This document shows, piece by piece, positions 9,653-23,102 of a stretch of DNA of 39,611 bases. Within the stretch, counting starts at the first letter, position 1. Each line of letters opens with the position of its first letter. The notes under the pieces are model-generated. The model was not told the DNA's origin and ran no database searches. It saw only the letters and a list, made by a program, of their open reading frames with translations. The DNA is taken from UHGV virus genome UHGV-0179848; one strand, 5' to 3'. The translations under genes and the position numbers were made by a program. This DNA is from a virus.

Positions 9653-10259
9653 TCTCCGGTGCTCCTGTCTTACTGCCTTTGCCGTTATCCTGATGCACAT
9701 GACCGGAATACCGTATCCCTGCAATAACGGCATCCGACATTGTGAACAGTCCCTGAGATTTCCCCGTACCATCAAGCGCGAAATTCCCCTTAACATGCAG
9801 GTTTTTATCCACCGTCACATTGCCCGTAAAGGTGGCTTCCGGCGTATCCACCCGCATCCCCTCGTCGGCGTAAATCTCCAGCATTTTGCATGTCACAATA
9901 ATGCGACCATCCTTTGTTAACCGTATCCGGTGCCCCTCATGGTGATACACCCCCGTATCTCCGGCTTTGAGTCCGGTCGGACGGCTGCGCCGGTCTTCCA
10001 CCACAAGCACCACAGTCTGATCCCGCTGTCCGCCCAGACAGGCAAAAAAGGTTTCTGCACCCGGCAGGGGAACGCTGATCTGCCCGTACTGCTGGGGGCG
10101 CTCCACATCATCAAAGGTTTCGCCGTCCATGCCGGTGAGCTGCACATTCTGCATTTTCAGTTCGTCATGTGTGCCGGTCAGAACGCCCCGGCCAAACAAC
10201 AGGCGAATACCGCGCGTTACCGGGGCAATCAGGCGGCTGAACACTTCATCATTCATCAA
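9645..10259 (-). CDS. Baseplate assembly/spike protein (Mu gp45-like)
   Basis: 204 aa in the Mu Q position; synteny. Confidence 0.75.
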   Translation of the reverse strand: MMNDEVFSRLIAPVTRGIRLLFGRGVLTGTHDELKMQNVQLTGMDGETFDDVERPQQYGQISVPLPGAETFFACLGGQRDQTVVLVVEDRRSRPTGLKAGDTGVYHHEGHRIRLTKDGRIIVTCKMLEIYADEGMRVDTPEATFTGNVTVDKNLHVKGNFALDGTGKSQGLFTMSDAVIAGIRYSGHVHQDNGKGSKTGAPENG

Positions 10260-15751: not shown

Positions 15752-17254
15752 TCACAAAATGAAACGGATCTGTGCTGCCAGGAAGCGGAACTGGTTAACC
15801 AGATCCGGCGTGCATAACACGTCAAGGCGGTTTCGATCTGACGTATTACGCTCCACAAGCAGATTCTTTTTAAACGTGTCCAGATTTTCGACCAGCCCGA
15901 GTTCCACCCACTCTTCACCCAGCGAAATTAACTGAAGCTTCATGATCTCCGGCGTCACGATATTCTGACCGGCACGAACGGGCGTCCCGTCATCAGCCAG
16001 TTTATGGCGCGGAAAACGTTGAGTGATGAAAGTGCGCAGGGAATAACGCAGATATGACAGGGTGTAGATGGTTTCCACATCCAGATAGCTGGGATCACTT
16101 TCGCCGTACACGTTCTGGCGATACATCGTCACCTGACGCTCAATCTGAACCATATCCCCGGCCGCCACACTGACCGTGGCAATCCCTCCCCACAGCAGAC
16201 TGTTACGCTCTTCACGCGTCAGACGATCGGCCGGGGCCGGGGCCATGCGTGACGGAAGCGCCAGCGTCTGAAGCGGACGCGCAGGATCTGCTCCCAGAGA
16301 GGGTGCACAGGTGGCACAGACCGCCGCTGCCCAGAGGTAATCCGGTTCAGGGGCTTTGGGAATGGATGTGCAGGTCGCCAGAAAATCATTGCGTTTTGCC
16401 CCGAATGCCTGCACCTCACCAAACGTGCCGGTATGTGCCAGCCACAGCACGCCGTCAGACATTTTGGCCGGTCCCCAGCGTTTCAGAAGTTCATCACTGA
16501 TGATTTTCAGGTTTGCATCGTCCTTGTAGGGCATGACAACATAGTTGTACTGGCGATCCCCCATTCCGGCCACACTTCGGGTGATATCGGGATTGCGGGC
16601 TCTTGAGGAGGGAAAGCCTGTCTGGGGCGTCAGCCCTGACGGCAGGGTTTCACCGTCGTGATAATTCAGGCGCAGATCGTGCACAGAGCATTCACCAATG
16701 AAGCGGGCGCTCACTCCCATACTTCCTTTCAGACCGCCTGCATTACTGCCATCAACAACCGCAGATACAGCTGTGAATGGCGCATCAGTATCCTTATTTA
16801 TCAGGGCAACAAGCGCATCAATGATAGCTTTTCCTTTTTGTCCGGCTTTTACGGGCAGCGCATAGCGTCGTCCACCAATATAGATGCAGAGCAAACCATC
16901 GGTCGCAGCCGTACCGGTAAGGTTAAAGGCGGCGGCATTTGCCCCGCCTGTTCCGGCCCCCTGCGCAATAGCATACAGTTCCGCATCAGGATTGATGGCA
17001 ATAAATTCAGCCACCATCAGAGCGATCATGGAGCCACGCCCCCAGAGCTCCACAGCCTGAGAGGCGCGAGTGATCCTGACCGGAACATCCAGCACACCGG
17101 TACCGTCCACAGCATTCTCTTTCATTCTCGCCTGACCAAACAGCAGCACACACTGACGCTGTGCCGGGGTGCCGGTGACCGCCATGGAGTTATTAAACTC
17201 AACCCCAATCAGCGGTATACGGCGGTCATTACCGATCCCGTCAAAATTAATCAT
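15752..17254 (-). CDS. Contractile tail sheath protein (Mu L / gp39-like)
   Basis: 500 aa, size and position as Mu L. Confidence 0.9.
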   Translation of the reverse strand: MINFDGIGNDRRIPLIGVEFNNSMAVTGTPAQRQCVLLFGQARMKENAVDGTGVLDVPVRITRASQAVELWGRGSMIALMVAEFIAINPDAELYAIAQGAGTGGANAAAFNLTGTAATDGLLCIYIGGRRYALPVKAGQKGKAIIDALVALINKDTDAPFTAVSAVVDGSNAGGLKGSMGVSARFIGECSVHDLRLNYHDGETLPSGLTPQTGFPSSRARNPDITRSVAGMGDRQYNYVVMPYKDDANLKIISDELLKRWGPAKMSDGVLWLAHTGTFGEVQAFGAKRNDFLATCTSIPKAPEPDYLWAAAVCATCAPSLGADPARPLQTLALPSRMAPAPADRLTREERNSLLWGGIATVSVAAGDMVQIERQVTMYRQNVYGESDPSYLDVETIYTLSYLRYSLRTFITQRFPRHKLADDGTPVRAGQNIVTPEIMKLQLISLGEEWVELGLVENLDTFKKNLLVERNTSDRNRLDVLCTPDLVNQFRFLAAQIRFIL

Positions 17255-17496
17255 TGCGGTTTCTCCTTATCGGATGCCGGTTGGGCGACCGGTTTTTCTG
17301 TCGCAGTCGTTGCATCCGCAGATACAGCCGGAGCCTCTTCAGCGGCTTTTTCAGCCTGAATGACATCGCCGTCATCAAGACGCCGACACCAGAACGGCGT
17401 GAAGGTTTTTTCCTCCCCCTCCTGTGCCAGCGGGCGCATTGTGTCGGGATCACGAATCAGGCGTCCCGGCGCGGGTTTGATAAAGATGGTTTTCAT
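17251..17496 (-). CDS. Small protein (Mu gp38 position)
   Basis: 81 aa between gp37-like and sheath genes. Confidence 0.55.
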   Translation of the reverse strand: MKTIFIKPAPGRLIRDPDTMRPLAQEGEEKTFTPFWCRRLDDGDVIQAEKAAEEAPAVSADATTATEKPVAQPASDKEKPQ

Positions 17497-18057
17497 TTAC
17501 AGTTCCTCCGGCGGTTCGACCGCCGTTGTCGTGTTCCCCGGCAAATCAATATGTGCCTCAAACGGCGGCGTACCGGGCGGCTCCACAAAGGTTTCGTAAT
17601 GACGCAGGAAGTCGTCCAGCGAGCTGATATCCGTCAGTGGCGCGATCATTTCCTCGCAGGAGAAATAAAGCGCATACATCACGGCCCCACTGTTCGCCTG
17701 GGTTTCGGTGTAACCGTTGACCGCCTTTTCAAAGTAAAGCGGTGAGGTTTTTTCTGTTCTGAAGCCGTTAAGCACGGCAATCAGCCGGGCCACAATCTGA
17801 TACAGTCCGGGACGGCTGGCCTCACGCCCGTTGAGCATGTCGCCGATGACGTAGAACACCCAGTGACTGACCAGGCGACCACGGGTACGGCCTTCACCGG
17901 CACCCAGCCAGGCAACGTAGATCGCCGGAGCGTTAATCAGCATGGTGCGCAGTACGCTGTCGCTCCAGTCGCCGGGATGCGTGTCAACAGACACAAGTTC
18001 ATTCCCGAAATACTCACGGATACGGGCGATGTATGCCTGTTCGGTTTCCGTAATCAT
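17497..18057 (-). CDS. Head-tail joining protein (Mu gp37-like)
   Basis: 186 aa; synteny with Mu K. Confidence 0.7.
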   Translation of the reverse strand: MITETEQAYIARIREYFGNELVSVDTHPGDWSDSVLRTMLINAPAIYVAWLGAGEGRTRGRLVSHWVFYVIGDMLNGREASRPGLYQIVARLIAVLNGFRTEKTSPLYFEKAVNGYTETQANSGAVMYALYFSCEEMIAPLTDISSLDDFLRHYETFVEPPGTPPFEAHIDLPGNTTTAVEPPEEL

Positions 18058-18473
18058 ATGAAGCCCTTCTGGTTGCGCCCGAATACCGCCGCATCAGACT
18101 GAACCTGTGGTAAATCCCCGGATTCAGGGGCCGCACCGTTCGTATCCACACCGACCGGCACATTGCCGTTCATGACATCTTTCAGCCAGGCCAGCGCTTC
18201 GCGGTAACGGTCACGCGCCTGATCGGAGGCTCTCTGATCGCACAGGTAATAAAAGGCAATCGCGCAACAGTGCTGAACAAGAACTGCCGGAATAACCTCC
18301 AGCGGCAGCGTGTAACGGGCGGACAGATAGCTGTCGATAAGGGCTGACGCATCTGTCAGCGCCCGGTTCAGCTTGCGCGTGTCCGGCTCATCCGAACGGG
18401 GCACTGCCAGTAACGGCCTGAGCAAATCCTCGCGGTAACGCGCCCGCATATCGGTTTCAGTGGCGTAATTCAT
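18054..18473 (-). CDS. Head-tail connector protein (Mu gp36-like)
   Basis: 139 aa; synteny with Mu J. Confidence 0.7.
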   Translation of the reverse strand: MNYATETDMRARYREDLLRPLLAVPRSDEPDTRKLNRALTDASALIDSYLSARYTLPLEVIPAVLVQHCCAIAFYYLCDQRASDQARDRYREALAWLKDVMNGNVPVGVDTNGAAPESGDLPQVQSDAAVFGRNQKGFI

Positions 18474-18889
18474 GCGTGGGCCTTTTTCGCCTGTTTCGCT
18501 TTGTTACCGGTCTTTTTCCGGGGAGCATCCTGTCCGGCTTCGGCTTCGGCTTCGGCTTCGGCTTCGGCTTCGGCTTCGGCTTCGGCTTCGGCTTCGGCTT
18601 CGGCTTCGGCTAAATCTGTACCGGCCACTGCATGAACCACACCCGCCACGCTCCCCGCATCATCAGCAGGCGTCTGTAGTATTCGCACAGTGAGGCATGG
18701 CTCCGCCTCCAGTCGGGCAAGCTGCTCCGGGGTGACCTCAACCTGCTGACGTCCACGCGTGAACAGGAACCCCGCACGACGAAACGCCGAACGACTGCAA
18801 CGCACTTCTGCCAGCACCGTGACAGAATTGTCACCACTGACCTGAAGACCTGAATCATCTGTTGCTGCCACAGTGTGATGTTCATTCAT
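18470..18889 (-). CDS. Hypothetical head-region protein with (Ala-Glu)n repeat and Lys-rich C-terminus
   Basis: 139-aa ORF between major capsid and gp36-like genes; about 13 AE dipeptides encoded by a hexanucleotide microsatellite. Confidence 0.6.
   Translation of the reverse strand: MNEHHTVAATDDSGLQVSGDNSVTVLAEVRCSRSAFRRAGFLFTRGRQQVEVTPEQLARLEAEPCLTVRILQTPADDAGSVAGVVHAVAGTDLAEAEAEAEAEAEAEAEAEAEAEAEAGQDAPRKKTGNKAKQAKKAHA
18535..18610. repeat. Tandem hexanucleotide repeat (GGCTTC/GAAGCC), about 12.5 copies
   Basis: Perfect repeat directly visible; in frame within the 18470-18889 gene. Confidence 0.95.
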
Positions 18890-18932: not shown

Positions 18933-19880
18933 TTACAGATAATCCGCGACAACCAGCTCCAGCTTGCCCTTCATCTCGTTAGAGACGGTTGCGTTTCCGT
19001 CTGCGAACAGTTCACGCTCCAGCAGCTGCACCGCCTGTTTTTCCAGCGAGGTGGGGACAACAATATGGGTGGGTTTGATGCCGAGTTTGCGGCCACCGTC
19101 AGCGGTAAATTCGCGCATGGCTGACCAGCCGTGCCACAGTGCATCCAGCGTCAGCGGTGACTGCATCATGTAGGCCATCTGCCAGAAGCCGTAGCCCACA
19201 TTGCGACGGGCGGAAGCACCGAACACAAATTCGTTATCGGTGAATGCGCGACCTTCATCGACTTTGGTCTGGGCAACCAGTTCAGCCTTACGGCGATCCT
19301 GATAAATCAGCGGTTTGATTGCGCGTGAACAGTCGAGCAGATACCAGGCAGGACCGCTGTAATCCGCCTGTGCACCGACAGAGCCGGTTTTTGCCACAAA
19401 CATATTGCTGACCATCTGCACATCCCCGGAGCCATCCACTTTGGGGTAAACAGGATGTTCGGTATCAAAGAAGTTCTGGCCGTCATAGCAGGCCGCATTA
19501 ATCCCGTCACGAAGAGCAGCAAAGACCAGTTCATCCGGTTGTGCCGCAGCAGCGCGCCCCATCTCCTGGAACAACGGGGAATAAATACCGAGGTTATCGT
19601 CTTCGAAGTCATCGCGGTTAATGGCGACGGTGCCTTCAAAGGTTTTGTTCACGATGGCATAGCCATAGGCCTTCATCTTCTCGATGACGCGGGAGCCGAT
19701 CCACTCACGGAACTGCGGGAACTGCCCCAGCCAGCCGTAGGTGTTGGATTTCGAGGTGGAGGGCACGGTCATCGCAATTTTTTTGTACTGCGACGGGGCC
19801 ATGGACATCCCGGCCTGAAAATCAGAACGGTAGCCCGTCATCAGGGCGGTGATCATCGCCGGTGTAATCGGGGTAGGCAT
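18933..19880 (-). CDS. Major capsid protein (Mu T / gp34-like)
   Basis: 315 aa, size and position as Mu T. Confidence 0.9.
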   Translation of the reverse strand: MPTPITPAMITALMTGYRSDFQAGMSMAPSQYKKIAMTVPSTSKSNTYGWLGQFPQFREWIGSRVIEKMKAYGYAIVNKTFEGTVAINRDDFEDDNLGIYSPLFQEMGRAAAAQPDELVFAALRDGINAACYDGQNFFDTEHPVYPKVDGSGDVQMVSNMFVAKTGSVGAQADYSGPAWYLLDCSRAIKPLIYQDRRKAELVAQTKVDEGRAFTDNEFVFGASARRNVGYGFWQMAYMMQSPLTLDALWHGWSAMREFTADGGRKLGIKPTHIVVPTSLEKQAVQLLERELFADGNATVSNEMKGKLELVVADYL

Positions 19881-21004
19881 TATTGCATTTCCTCTTTCAT
19901 TTTCAGGAATTCGGCTTCGGTTTTACCCAGAAGATGGGCGGCGGCGATATCTTCAGCCGACAGCGAGGCGGTGGCGGTCTTTTTATCCGGCACGGTCACG
20001 GTGTCGGTCTGAAGGCCGGTCAGGGCTGCAACCGGCTGTCGGGCGTCAAGCTGTGCAGAAAGTGCAGTAACACCAATCTGCCCACCCAGCTGTTCCAGAT
20101 AGCCGCGTTCGCTTTTGAAGATGCGCCCTTCGGACTCGGCCTTGTCCAGCACCTGCTCCAGAGTGGTGCTGCCGTGCTGTGCTGACAGCGCAACGTATTC
20201 GGTACGCAGGGCGTTATACGTTTCAACAGGCACATATTTCGTCAGATCAATACTGCCGCCAGCCGGTGTACCTTTTGCGGTTTCCAGCTCTGCCGACAGA
20301 CTGGCGACCTGTGTTTTCAGGTTGTCGTGTGCATCCGCACGGGTTTTGATCCCGGTGAGGGCAGACAGCGCCGCCGTGCCCAGCTCCGGCGTAAATTCGT
20401 CACCGTCAGCCACGGTCAGACCGAGCGCCGTCAGCAACTGGCGTAATTGCTCATTCATGGAGGTATCCTTTAAAGGAGGGTTTAAGGCGTTATAAAGGTC
20501 ATCCGCCGACAGCGCGGCGACAGGATTCATGCCGGTCAGACCGGGGTCACCGGTAATAGCCAGCATCCGAAGTTCGACAGGTTCGCCGGTGTTCTCGTCA
20601 TAGCCAATCACCGGTGAAAACCAGGGGAATTCGTTATTACGCAGATGTTCAAGGGCCGGAGGGTTCCACTTCGGGCGCACCTCGAAGCCACGCTCTTCAC
20701 TGAAGCGGAAGTTTTCCGGTGAAGCCGTCACAAAACCGGCAGCCGGTGCCTGATGCCCCTTAATCAGGGTCTGGTGGTTGTAGTCAATTTTTACCGGCTG
20801 ATTGAGCGCCACAACCCGGGATACCATGCGCTCAACGGTCGCACGGTTAATCAGCCAGCCTTCAGCCGGTTTTTCCGGGCGACCGTCACGGGCCTTTACC
20901 CGACCGGCTGGCATGATCTGACACCAGTCACCGTCCCCGTCTGCGGACAGGCTGATGGCATTCAGAATGGCATAAGCAAGTTTGGGCGTGTTTTTCGTCT
21001 TCAT
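19880..21004 (-). CDS. Head maturation protease/scaffold (Mu I / gp32-like)
   Basis: 374 aa immediately upstream of the major capsid gene. Confidence 0.8.
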   Translation of the reverse strand: MKTKNTPKLAYAILNAISLSADGDGDWCQIMPAGRVKARDGRPEKPAEGWLINRATVERMVSRVVALNQPVKIDYNHQTLIKGHQAPAAGFVTASPENFRFSEERGFEVRPKWNPPALEHLRNNEFPWFSPVIGYDENTGEPVELRMLAITGDPGLTGMNPVAALSADDLYNALNPPLKDTSMNEQLRQLLTALGLTVADGDEFTPELGTAALSALTGIKTRADAHDNLKTQVASLSAELETAKGTPAGGSIDLTKYVPVETYNALRTEYVALSAQHGSTTLEQVLDKAESEGRIFKSERGYLEQLGGQIGVTALSAQLDARQPVAALTGLQTDTVTVPDKKTATASLSAEDIAAAHLLGKTEAEFLKMKEEMQ

Positions 21005-21180: not shown

Positions 21181-21654
21181 TTAAGGCGTTTCTGTGGCCT
21201 TTTTAAAGCGTTTTCTGATTTCGGCCATGATCTCCTGCTCTGCCACCTGATCAAAGCCCATATACGGACGTGCACCAATGGCCGCCGGTCCAGGCGGCAT
21301 ACCTGGCAGGCCACCCCACTGATGAATGGCCGCATAAGGCTCATTTGATCCAATCAGCGCCCAGGTATCGCCATAATCCGTGGTCAGGCGTCGGGCCAGA
21401 TCGCCGTTCAGCGTCAGGATTTTGCCGGGCATGTATCCCTTACGGGTACGCCACTTGCGGTAAGGATCTGACCAGTCATGCCAGCGTTCGCCGTCCGGCT
21501 CTTTTTCCTGTTCAAACGCCATTTCTGAGGATGACAGAAGGCTGGACGCCACACTGCGGGCCAGGTCTTTTCCGCCCCCCACAAACTGAAGCCGGGCAAA
21601 CACCCGCTGGAGACGCGTAACGTCAACAACGACAGCGGCATCAATGGATGACAT
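21181..21654 (-). CDS. Virion morphogenesis protein (Mu G / gp31-like)
   Basis: 157 aa; synteny. Confidence 0.75.
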   Translation of the reverse strand: MSSIDAAVVVDVTRLQRVFARLQFVGGGKDLARSVASSLLSSSEMAFEQEKEPDGERWHDWSDPYRKWRTRKGYMPGKILTLNGDLARRLTTDYGDTWALIGSNEPYAAIHQWGGLPGMPPGPAAIGARPYMGFDQVAEQEIMAEIRKRFKKATETP

Positions 21655-21776
21655 ATTGCCTCCGTGAAACTACCTGGTTAAAATAAAAGCAGGTCGGTGT
21701 ACTCTTAACTGGTAAAGCGGCGCCTGATGGTTTTTTCCTGAGGGATGTTTATGCGGGTTCGACCCCCGCCACCGAC

Positions 21777-23102
21777 CTACAATTCACCCTCCAGTAATTC
21801 CAGCTTTCCACCGCGCAGATCATCAAGTAATGCCTCCTTTTTGACTCTGTAGGCATTAATCACCACATCCAGCTTATCCGGCTGACGTTTCACACTATAA
21901 GGCGCATTGACGGCAATCTTTGCCGTTCCGTCACGGGTTTCAGTGATGTAAAGCAGATTCTGATGGACATGATCCCACAGCACGGCATCAGGCGCGGCTA
22001 GCATTGCCGGTAATCGCCCGAAATCCTCCGGCGTCAGGGCAATGCCGTCATTCTGATGTTTCACGCTGTCCGCATGGAGCACATTTTTACCGCTCATCGC
22101 CAGCAGGCGGGCCGGTGGCGTTCCCGTCCGGCTTTCCACCGCCTGCGCAATACTTTCGGTCATAAAGCCCAGCGTGCGGATATCGTGACCACCTCGCCGG
22201 GTCTTCATGATGTTTTTTGCCCAGATGCGGAACGCCAGCTGCCGCTCCGGGCTGTTGTTCATCTCCTGAACCACCATTTCCCGTAACGCCGGGCTTTTCA
22301 CCTCGATCAGTTTACGGATCAGCGCCTGGTCTGTGCCGAACGCCGCCGAACCGGGGTTATATGACCAGCCCACATCCGGTGTCATGGTTCTGGTGCCATC
22401 TGAATATGTGGTCACCGGCATTTCTCTGACTTCTCCGGTCTGCTTATCCACGCCAGCCTCAACATTGCGGGTGGAGAGATGATCCTGACCGGATGAAACG
22501 GATAACCCCATTGCATCCAGACGGGCCTGAGATAATGGCCGGACACGGCAGCGGCAGTTCCAGCCATTGGGCGGGTAGTGTGTATTCCAGAACGGATCGT
22601 CATAGCGGAATACCAGCCCGTTAAAGGCGGAATGTGCCGGGCGGGTGCGGCTGTCCATCACCGCCACATACTGCCAGAACGGATGCGTGTCCGTGTTGTT
22701 CATCATCTGCGTGTAACGCCCGGCATTGTAAGCCACACGGGTGTTCACGTTGTAAATCAGCGCCAGACGGCGGGGACTGCCCAGCTGCACTTCTTCCGCG
22801 TTACCGGCACTGTCCACCACAATCTGTTTTCCCCACCATCCCAGCTTTTGCAGGCGGGGTGTCAGCGTGCGAATAAATGCTTTCTGTGAAATCCCCTCAT
22901 CAACAGCACGCTGCACTTCCGCCTGTAGTGTGGTCAGTACGTCCAGGCGTGCCACTTTTGCCGCCGTGAATGAACGGGCATGAACATCCGCGTCTGTTTC
23001 GAACCAGTTCCAGCTGATATGCGCCCCTTTGGCGCGGAAGTATGCCACCGCCTCTTTTGAGGGAAGCGTGGCGGCATAACCCAGATCAATCCCCTGTGCC
23101 AT
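21777..23102 (-). CDS. Head morphogenesis protein (Mu F / gp30-like)
   Basis: 441 aa downstream of portal. Confidence 0.8.
   Translation of the reverse strand: MAQGIDLGYAATLPSKEAVAYFRAKGAHISWNWFETDADVHARSFTAAKVARLDVLTTLQAEVQRAVDEGISQKAFIRTLTPRLQKLGWWGKQIVVDSAGNAEEVQLGSPRRLALIYNVNTRVAYNAGRYTQMMNNTDTHPFWQYVAVMDSRTRPAHSAFNGLVFRYDDPFWNTHYPPNGWNCRCRVRPLSQARLDAMGLSVSSGQDHLSTRNVEAGVDKQTGEVREMPVTTYSDGTRTMTPDVGWSYNPGSAAFGTDQALIRKLIEVKSPALREMVVQEMNNSPERQLAFRIWAKNIMKTRRGGHDIRTLGFMTESIAQAVESRTGTPPARLLAMSGKNVLHADSVKHQNDGIALTPEDFGRLPAMLAAPDAVLWDHVHQNLLYITETRDGTAKIAVNAPYSVKRQPDKLDVVINAYRVKKEALLDDLRGGKLELLEGEL

Follow-up and report, generated by a model that had tools for sequence, protein, structure and literature searches.

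A hexanucleotide coding repeat that varies by whole units in a gp35/HI1506-family gene of Mu-like Escherichia coli prophages

Hexanucleotide coding variable-number tandem repeats (VNTRs) of Escherichia coli O157:H7 have long been used in MLVA typing (PulseNet-type loci). They consist of perfect 6-bp units, often lie within open reading frames, change by whole-unit slippage and are polymorphic among near-clonal strains with no on/off effect; in all these respects the array described here is like them. Localised slippage hypermutation at a simple repeat inside a gene is a further feature that it has in common with the contingency loci of Haemophilus and Neisseria. On the protein side, the closest described systems are gp35 of phage Mu and HI1506 of Haemophilus influenzae FluMu (PDB entry 2OUT), both of which carry the FluMu_N domain also present in the protein studied here, and the gene for Mu gp35 likewise lies between the genes for the major capsid protein and the gp36 adaptor. 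In the NMR paper on HI1506 from 2007, the linker following this domain is reportedly unstructured and about 30 residues long.

Here, we analysed the virus genome UHGV-0179848, a stretch of 39,611 nucleotides (hereafter the window), which is essentially one Mu-like prophage (~385 to ~38,900) and contains the Mu-like genes for a transposase, Gam, Mor, Gin and Com/Mom. The closest sequence is a prophage in bcsA of strain STEC2018-607 (~99% identity), while prophages at other chromosomal sites are 97-99% identical. Judged by their sequences, such varied insertion sites are as expected of a transposable phage. The Gin invertase gene (5003-5563) and com/mom (mom at 513-1250) are separated by a cargo gene (2831-4912, minus strand) for a 693-aa SASA (sialate O-acetylesterase-like) plus DUF6645 protein, which in relatives is adjoined by small DUF826/DUF1378 genes. 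A tRNA-like sequence (~21686-21771, plus strand) runs antisense to the late genes between gpG (21181-21654) and gpF (21777-23102). An acceptor-like pairing of 8 bp (GGTCGGTG…CACCGACC) and a canonical T-arm (GCGGGTTCGACCCCCGC) can be recognised in it, and RefSeq lists a 'tRNA-OTHER' at the matching site in three relatives; neither ARAGORN nor Rfam gave a call for it, and quickly folding a slightly shortened version showed nothing remarkable.

The repeat lies in the late operon, all of whose genes named below are encoded on the minus strand. In the direction of transcription, the gene for the gpI protease/scaffold (19880-21004) is followed by that for the major capsid protein gpT (18933-19880; Pfam Mu-like_gpT, E = 4e-119; phrog_371, major head protein), directly downstream of which lies the repeat gene (18470-18889), identified by its open reading frame and by Pfam, PDB and tblastn matches as encoding a 139-aa Mu gp35/HI1506-related protein. 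The next genes code for a gp36-type head-tail adaptor (18054-18473; Pfam Phage_Mu_Gp36, E = 3.5e-35), the gp37 terminator (17497-18057), a DUF2635 protein (17251-17496) and the sheath (15752-17254). Mu gp36 was described as the adaptor in the cryo-EM structure of Mu (PMC11915804). The repeat gene ends in a stop codon that shares bases with the ATG of the gp36 gene (ATGA, 18470-18473), an arrangement consistent with translational coupling of the two genes as far as the sequence can tell. In STEC2018-607, the gp36 gene beside the repeat gene (19675-20094 of the fetched locus L001) is flagged in RefSeq as a pseudogene with an internal stop, and on account of this flag that prophage copy may be defective.

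Direct reading and Tandem Repeats Finder (TRF) both delimit a perfect hexanucleotide array at 18535-18611 (period 6, 12.8 copies, 100% matches, no indels, score 154). Counted in the GGCTTC register, and also from flanking anchors, it comprises 12 complete units (18536-18607), after which comes a GGC. The plus strand thus carries (GGCTTC)12, and the coding strand GCC(GAAGCC)12, which is translated into A(EA)12 with 12 Glu residues (aa 94-118). An 18-mer of three units matches the window 11 times, always within the array, compared to 0.01 matches expected from 100 shuffled sequences, and no second tandem array of more than three copies was reported by TRF in the whole 39.6-kb window. The array is hence non-random and pure, with perfect copies of a short unit standing head to tail far above chance expectation. 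The original prediction, made from the letters of the window, had put about 12.5 copies of GGCTTC coding for an Ala-Glu tract into the gene between the major capsid and gp36-like genes; the copy number, the coding capacity in the minus-strand frame 18470-18889 and the position between the two Pfam-assigned neighbours were all borne out.

The protein encoded by the repeat gene scores 37.2 bits against the Pfam family FluMu_N (gathering cut-off 25.8; aa 36-72), and tblastn matches it to gene 35 of Mu, D108, SfMu and Yersinia Mu-like phages. Together with the location of its gene between gpT and gp36 in a Mu-type late operon, the domain score assigns it to the gp35/HI1506 family. RefSeq names the protein 'HI1506-related protein' in relatives, PHROGs places it in phrog_3622 with the function label unknown, and no NCBIfam model matches either the window protein or Mu gp35. 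Its sole PDB relative by sequence is the NMR structure 2OUT (E = 5e-5), covering the N-domain only. AlphaFold, Foldseek and the family alignment agree on a folded FluMu_N N-domain with a conserved RRAG motif (18674-18817, minus strand; aa 25-72), in which R38, A39 and L66 are invariant across the family. For this domain, the AlphaFold model, computed from an alignment of 17 sequences that did not contain a row for Mu gp35, gives a beta-beta-alpha-beta topology with pLDDT values of 87-96. Beyond residue 78 there is no fold in the model, and pLDDT is below 50 for residues 79-133; the Ala-Glu tract and the tail are thus predicted to be disordered.

Mu gp35 (136 aa) and most of the distant relatives that an exhaustive HMMER search recovered are built from the N-domain, a variable linker and some 45 aa of helical C-domain (…RIRxAxxxLDKxNPxHFT…). 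At the position of the tract, these homologues have unrelated sequence of varying length. In the window protein, the conserved 'DL' junction is followed by the Ala-Glu tract, a Lys/Arg-rich C-terminal tail of 21 aa (GQDAPRKKTGNKAKQAKKAHA; 18473-18535, minus strand; aa 119-139 by translation and alignment) and nothing more. The tail occupies the place of the 3-helix C-domain of Mu gp35 and HI1506, so that the two-domain architecture of the family is absent from the aligned window protein. Since MAFFT aligned the tail weakly with pieces of the family C-domain, it may be a degenerate remnant thereof. By these sequence comparisons, the protein is a truncated, repeat-bearing variant of the FluMu_N/gp35 family. 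The original prediction of an acidic linker is hence to be refined: the segment is acidic, predicted to be disordered and placed after the FluMu_N domain, but it joins this domain to a short basic tail and not to a second folded domain.

GenBank labels gp35 of Mu a 'head-to-tail connector complex protein'. In the Mu cryo-EM study of 2025, gp35 was not located, and was considered possibly 'an additional connector-related protein' (PMC11915804). We infer that the window protein is a head/neck-associated accessory, possibly binding nucleic acids. Its description as a head-region protein in the original prediction stands by gene position, while a location in the virion is putative. Foldseek searches of the PDB with the predicted model returned 2OUT as the top and only meaningful match (E = 1.2e-3). 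All other matches had E > 0.4, among them a weak local one to Bacillus subtilis YqbF (2HJQ; E = 1.5, 43 residues), and neither a capsid protein nor any resolved virion protein was among the matches. A role as decoration (cement) protein was rejected, as the Foldseek comparison with the PDB gave no match to a decoration fold and the Mu capsid has no cement protein (PMC11915804). Three distant homologues (P0094, P0097 and P0101) are longer proteins with paired, tandem FluMu_N domains at their C-terminus, and one of them has an N-terminal helix-hairpin-helix DNA-binding motif. This fusion is a hint from sequence that the FluMu_N domain may work in a nucleic-acid context.

The gene region was found in 228-232 of 5,426 complete E. 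coli genomes (~4%), mostly of Shiga toxin-producing strains (STEC), and at 267 places. Some genomes harbour two to four prophage copies; for these, the best place per record was taken. Fourteen chromosomal loci from 13 E. coli chromosomes, with strain 139 counted twice, have 1, 4, 4, 4, 5, 6, 7, 8, 13, 14, 14, 15, 16 and 17 units, compared to 12 in the window. Prophage Sp18 of strain Sakai (ECs_4975) carries eight units, and 13 IMG/VR contigs with the repeat gene carry 3-16. The array was perfectly pure and its immediate junctions were unchanged at all 14 chromosomal loci. Taken together, the 25 sequenced relatives, 12 of them chromosomal loci and 13 viral contigs, have pure arrays of 1-17 units, and each keeps the reading frame. 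For a broader view, the span matched by a 401-bp probe was compared in 57 complete genomes, a spread sample of the matches. Spans ranged from 335 to 431 bp and differed by multiples of 3 throughout. Besides the array, the gene has a second, in-frame polymorphism of 9 bp in the tail (…KAKQAKKARA versus …KAEQARA; window 18473-18500; relatives L003 and L014-L016), which explains why some spans deviate from that of the window by 3 bp times an odd number. With this correction, 16 size classes of 1-17 units were obtained, a conversion that agreed with the 12 loci among the 57 that were fetched and sequenced. The largest allele seen has 17 units, and a single-unit allele is implied in nine of the 57 genomes. 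A 335-bp span converting to a single unit was also found at 89898-90232 of NZ_CP074995.1, a 166,865-bp plasmid of strain 8479; by sequence, this is a Mu-like prophage inserted into a large plasmid. A uniform copy number in all related prophages had been named beforehand as the outcome speaking against slippage; the opposite was found, with 1-17 units among relatives.

Differences in copy number were not accompanied by corresponding divergence of the flanks, for which mismatches were counted only between pairs of the same tail type, as the 9-bp tail indel shifts one flank. Not one mismatch was counted in 2 × 1400 bp of flanking sequence among Sakai Sp18, FRIK944 and the cattle strains 131, 139 and 143, yet their arrays comprise 8, 5, 13, 14 and 16 units, respectively. 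Across 40.4 kb covering the whole prophage and host flank, a single 6-bp gap is all that distinguishes strain 131 (13 units) from strain 139 (14 units). Two mismatches in 2.8 kb of flanks separate the window from JNEC-KY203, but their arrays have 12 and four units, respectively. JNEC-KY176 (17 units) and ECP19-798 (one unit) differ by eight flank mismatches and have the rare Cys90 variant in common; given these few differences and the common variant, the allele of ECP19-798 is most simply explained by a one-step collapse, and single-unit alleles are probably such collapses in general. Whole-unit differences thus occur among identical or near-identical sequences, and the array changes much faster than its surroundings.

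Related repeats were also found elsewhere. Database proteins of this type contain in-frame interruptions of the tract (AEVE, AESE, AEAK and AAAE), and an adjoining second unit, GCCGGA, is also expanded, giving (GA)n. A distant metagenome FluMu_N protein (P0084) ends in a degenerate Ala-Lys/Ala-Glu tail with 6-bp periodicity that includes a perfect (GCGGAA)3, indicating that dipeptide-repeat tails arose more than once in the FluMu_N family. Furthermore, an unrelated phage protein of ~234 aa (phrog_6784/33976) carries a GAAGCC array of three to four units (…SDD(EA)nGQDPKVLF…) on two IMG/VR contigs (L018 at ~9942-9966 and L023 at ~577-601). The 3' junction of that array (…GGA CAG G) is identical to that of the repeat gene, which points to either convergence or exchange.

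Taken together, we favour, with a probability of about 75%, the explanation that the array is a coding VNTR driven by replication slippage in a disordered, length-tolerant linker, and that its length is largely neutral. Whole units would be gained and lost by slipped-strand mispairing or by unequal recombination between identical 6-bp units. As each unit equals two codons (GAA-GCC), such events keep the frame and only add or remove Glu-Ala dipeptides. The tract would sit just past the FluMu_N fold, joining the domain to the short Lys-rich tail in the E. coli lineage. A linker of this kind would tolerate 3 to 35 residues because the segment is unstructured, and the copy number could drift largely neutrally as a consequence, much faster than point substitutions accumulate. 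The in-frame slippage forecast for this tract is supported by whole-unit variation on identical flanks with all alleles in frame, from which we infer the slippage mechanism and the near-neutrality of length. Selection on tract length may nevertheless act, as many lineages keep a long, pure array and no allele of more than 17 units was seen.

But, could the length of the tract itself be functionally tuned? The best-surviving alternative, which we consider unlikely, is an adaptive rheostat, in which the acidic (EA)n tract (−1 to −17 charges) acts as a variable spacer, or serves the Lys-rich tail and a basic patch on the N-domain as an intramolecular counter-ion or a mimic of DNA. The outcome would be heritable diversity in an accessory function of the head or neck, such as DNA binding, particle stability or surface charge. 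Such tuning would fit the basic tail directly adjoining the acidic tract, the many intermediate alleles, each found in several strains, the recurrence of A/E/K-rich low-complexity tails in distant family members and the fusion of one distant FluMu_N protein to a helix-hairpin-helix motif. It would also fit the purity of the arrays, which in all alleles lack decay by point mutation, but frequent slippage by itself also predicts purity. Allele sizes are spread broadly and evenly, as drift predicts, and the single-unit alleles (9/57) leave both reading frame and operon intact, so that gene integrity does not depend on a long tract. A particular form of this idea, in which Glu-Ala units beside the Lys-rich tail serve as a tuning knob for the reach or the electrostatic self-inhibition of a head/neck, possibly DNA-binding, protein, is doubtful and put forward as a long shot. 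If true, a standing range of virion or packaging properties would be present in the prophage population, and the locus would be a counterpart of bacterial contingency loci that works in frame and by degrees, within a phage morphogenesis operon.

It is very improbable that the array acts at the level of DNA or RNA, for instance as an element controlling gp36 translation, a recombination hotspot or a packaging signal, with the coding of Ala-Glu being incidental. The presence of a GAAGCC array with the same 3' junction in an unrelated protein suggests that the motif may move or arise independently, as such a role would allow. However, single-unit alleles in intact operons argue that the array is dispensable, its length is unconstrained, there was no Rfam match, and by inspection the GCCGAA repeat in the mRNA appears to have little self-complementarity.

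We give hardly any credence to the view that the copy-number differences are assembly or sequencing artefacts, i.e. errors in resolving the repeat. Many database proteins of this type are indeed 'partial' and end within the tract, indicating that short-read assemblies break at the array. The comparison was made with complete genomes, though, and the arrays of at most 102 bp fit, in our assessment, within one long read. Moreover, identical alleles recur in several independent strains: a span of 380 bp was found in five records, one of 404 bp in four and one of 368 bp in Sakai and three others. As each allele occurs in several independent strains, a consensus error is also an unlikely cause of the one-unit difference between two assemblies. 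Finally, on/off phase variation of the repeat gene or the coupled gp36 gene, for which a hypermutable simple repeat in a gene whose stop overlaps the next start might be taken to speak, was rejected as next to impossible, given a 6-bp unit, spans differing only by multiples of 3, sequenced alleles that are all in frame and frame excursions confined to isolated database entries such as P0071, where the tract is read in a Lys-Pro frame and compensated downstream.

The significance of a largely neutral coding VNTR is mainly practical, unless tract length has a phenotype. Sp18-type Mu-like prophages are common in STEC (O157, O26, O111, O103 and O145), and as a strain marker the locus separates them even when the surrounding 40 kb are identical. 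It could thus add resolution to outbreak typing or to the tracking of prophage lineages. The array also accounts for broken contigs and for HI1506-related proteins labelled 'partial' in short-read assemblies, and it marks the region past FluMu_N as length-tolerant, which is useful for studying or engineering the gp35 family. Beyond that, it offers a clean natural case of a microsatellite that stays in frame within a late gene of a phage.

Our literature search found no description of the locus as a VNTR; the locus is new, but the kind of repeat, an ordinary coding microsatellite, is well known. In contrast to the O157 MLVA loci, the array resides in an Sp18-type prophage present in about 4% of complete E. 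coli genomes and is no core marker. Compared to Mu gp35, HI1506 and most relatives, which have a non-repetitive linker and a helical C-domain of ~45 aa, the window protein has (EA)12 and the 21-aa basic tail, and the DNA repeat is absent from Mu and from the Edwardsiella homologue. A parallel in genome organisation exists in the Mu-like siphophage JBD30, whose gp39, a Soc-like minor capsid protein, is likewise a small protein whose gene directly follows that of the capsid protein in a head module of Mu type, but this protein has no detectable relation to the window protein. The contingency loci of Haemophilus and Neisseria differ in what slippage brings about: there, changes in repeat number shift the reading frame or the promoter spacing, whereas the unit of the prophage array equals two codons and its alleles stay in frame.
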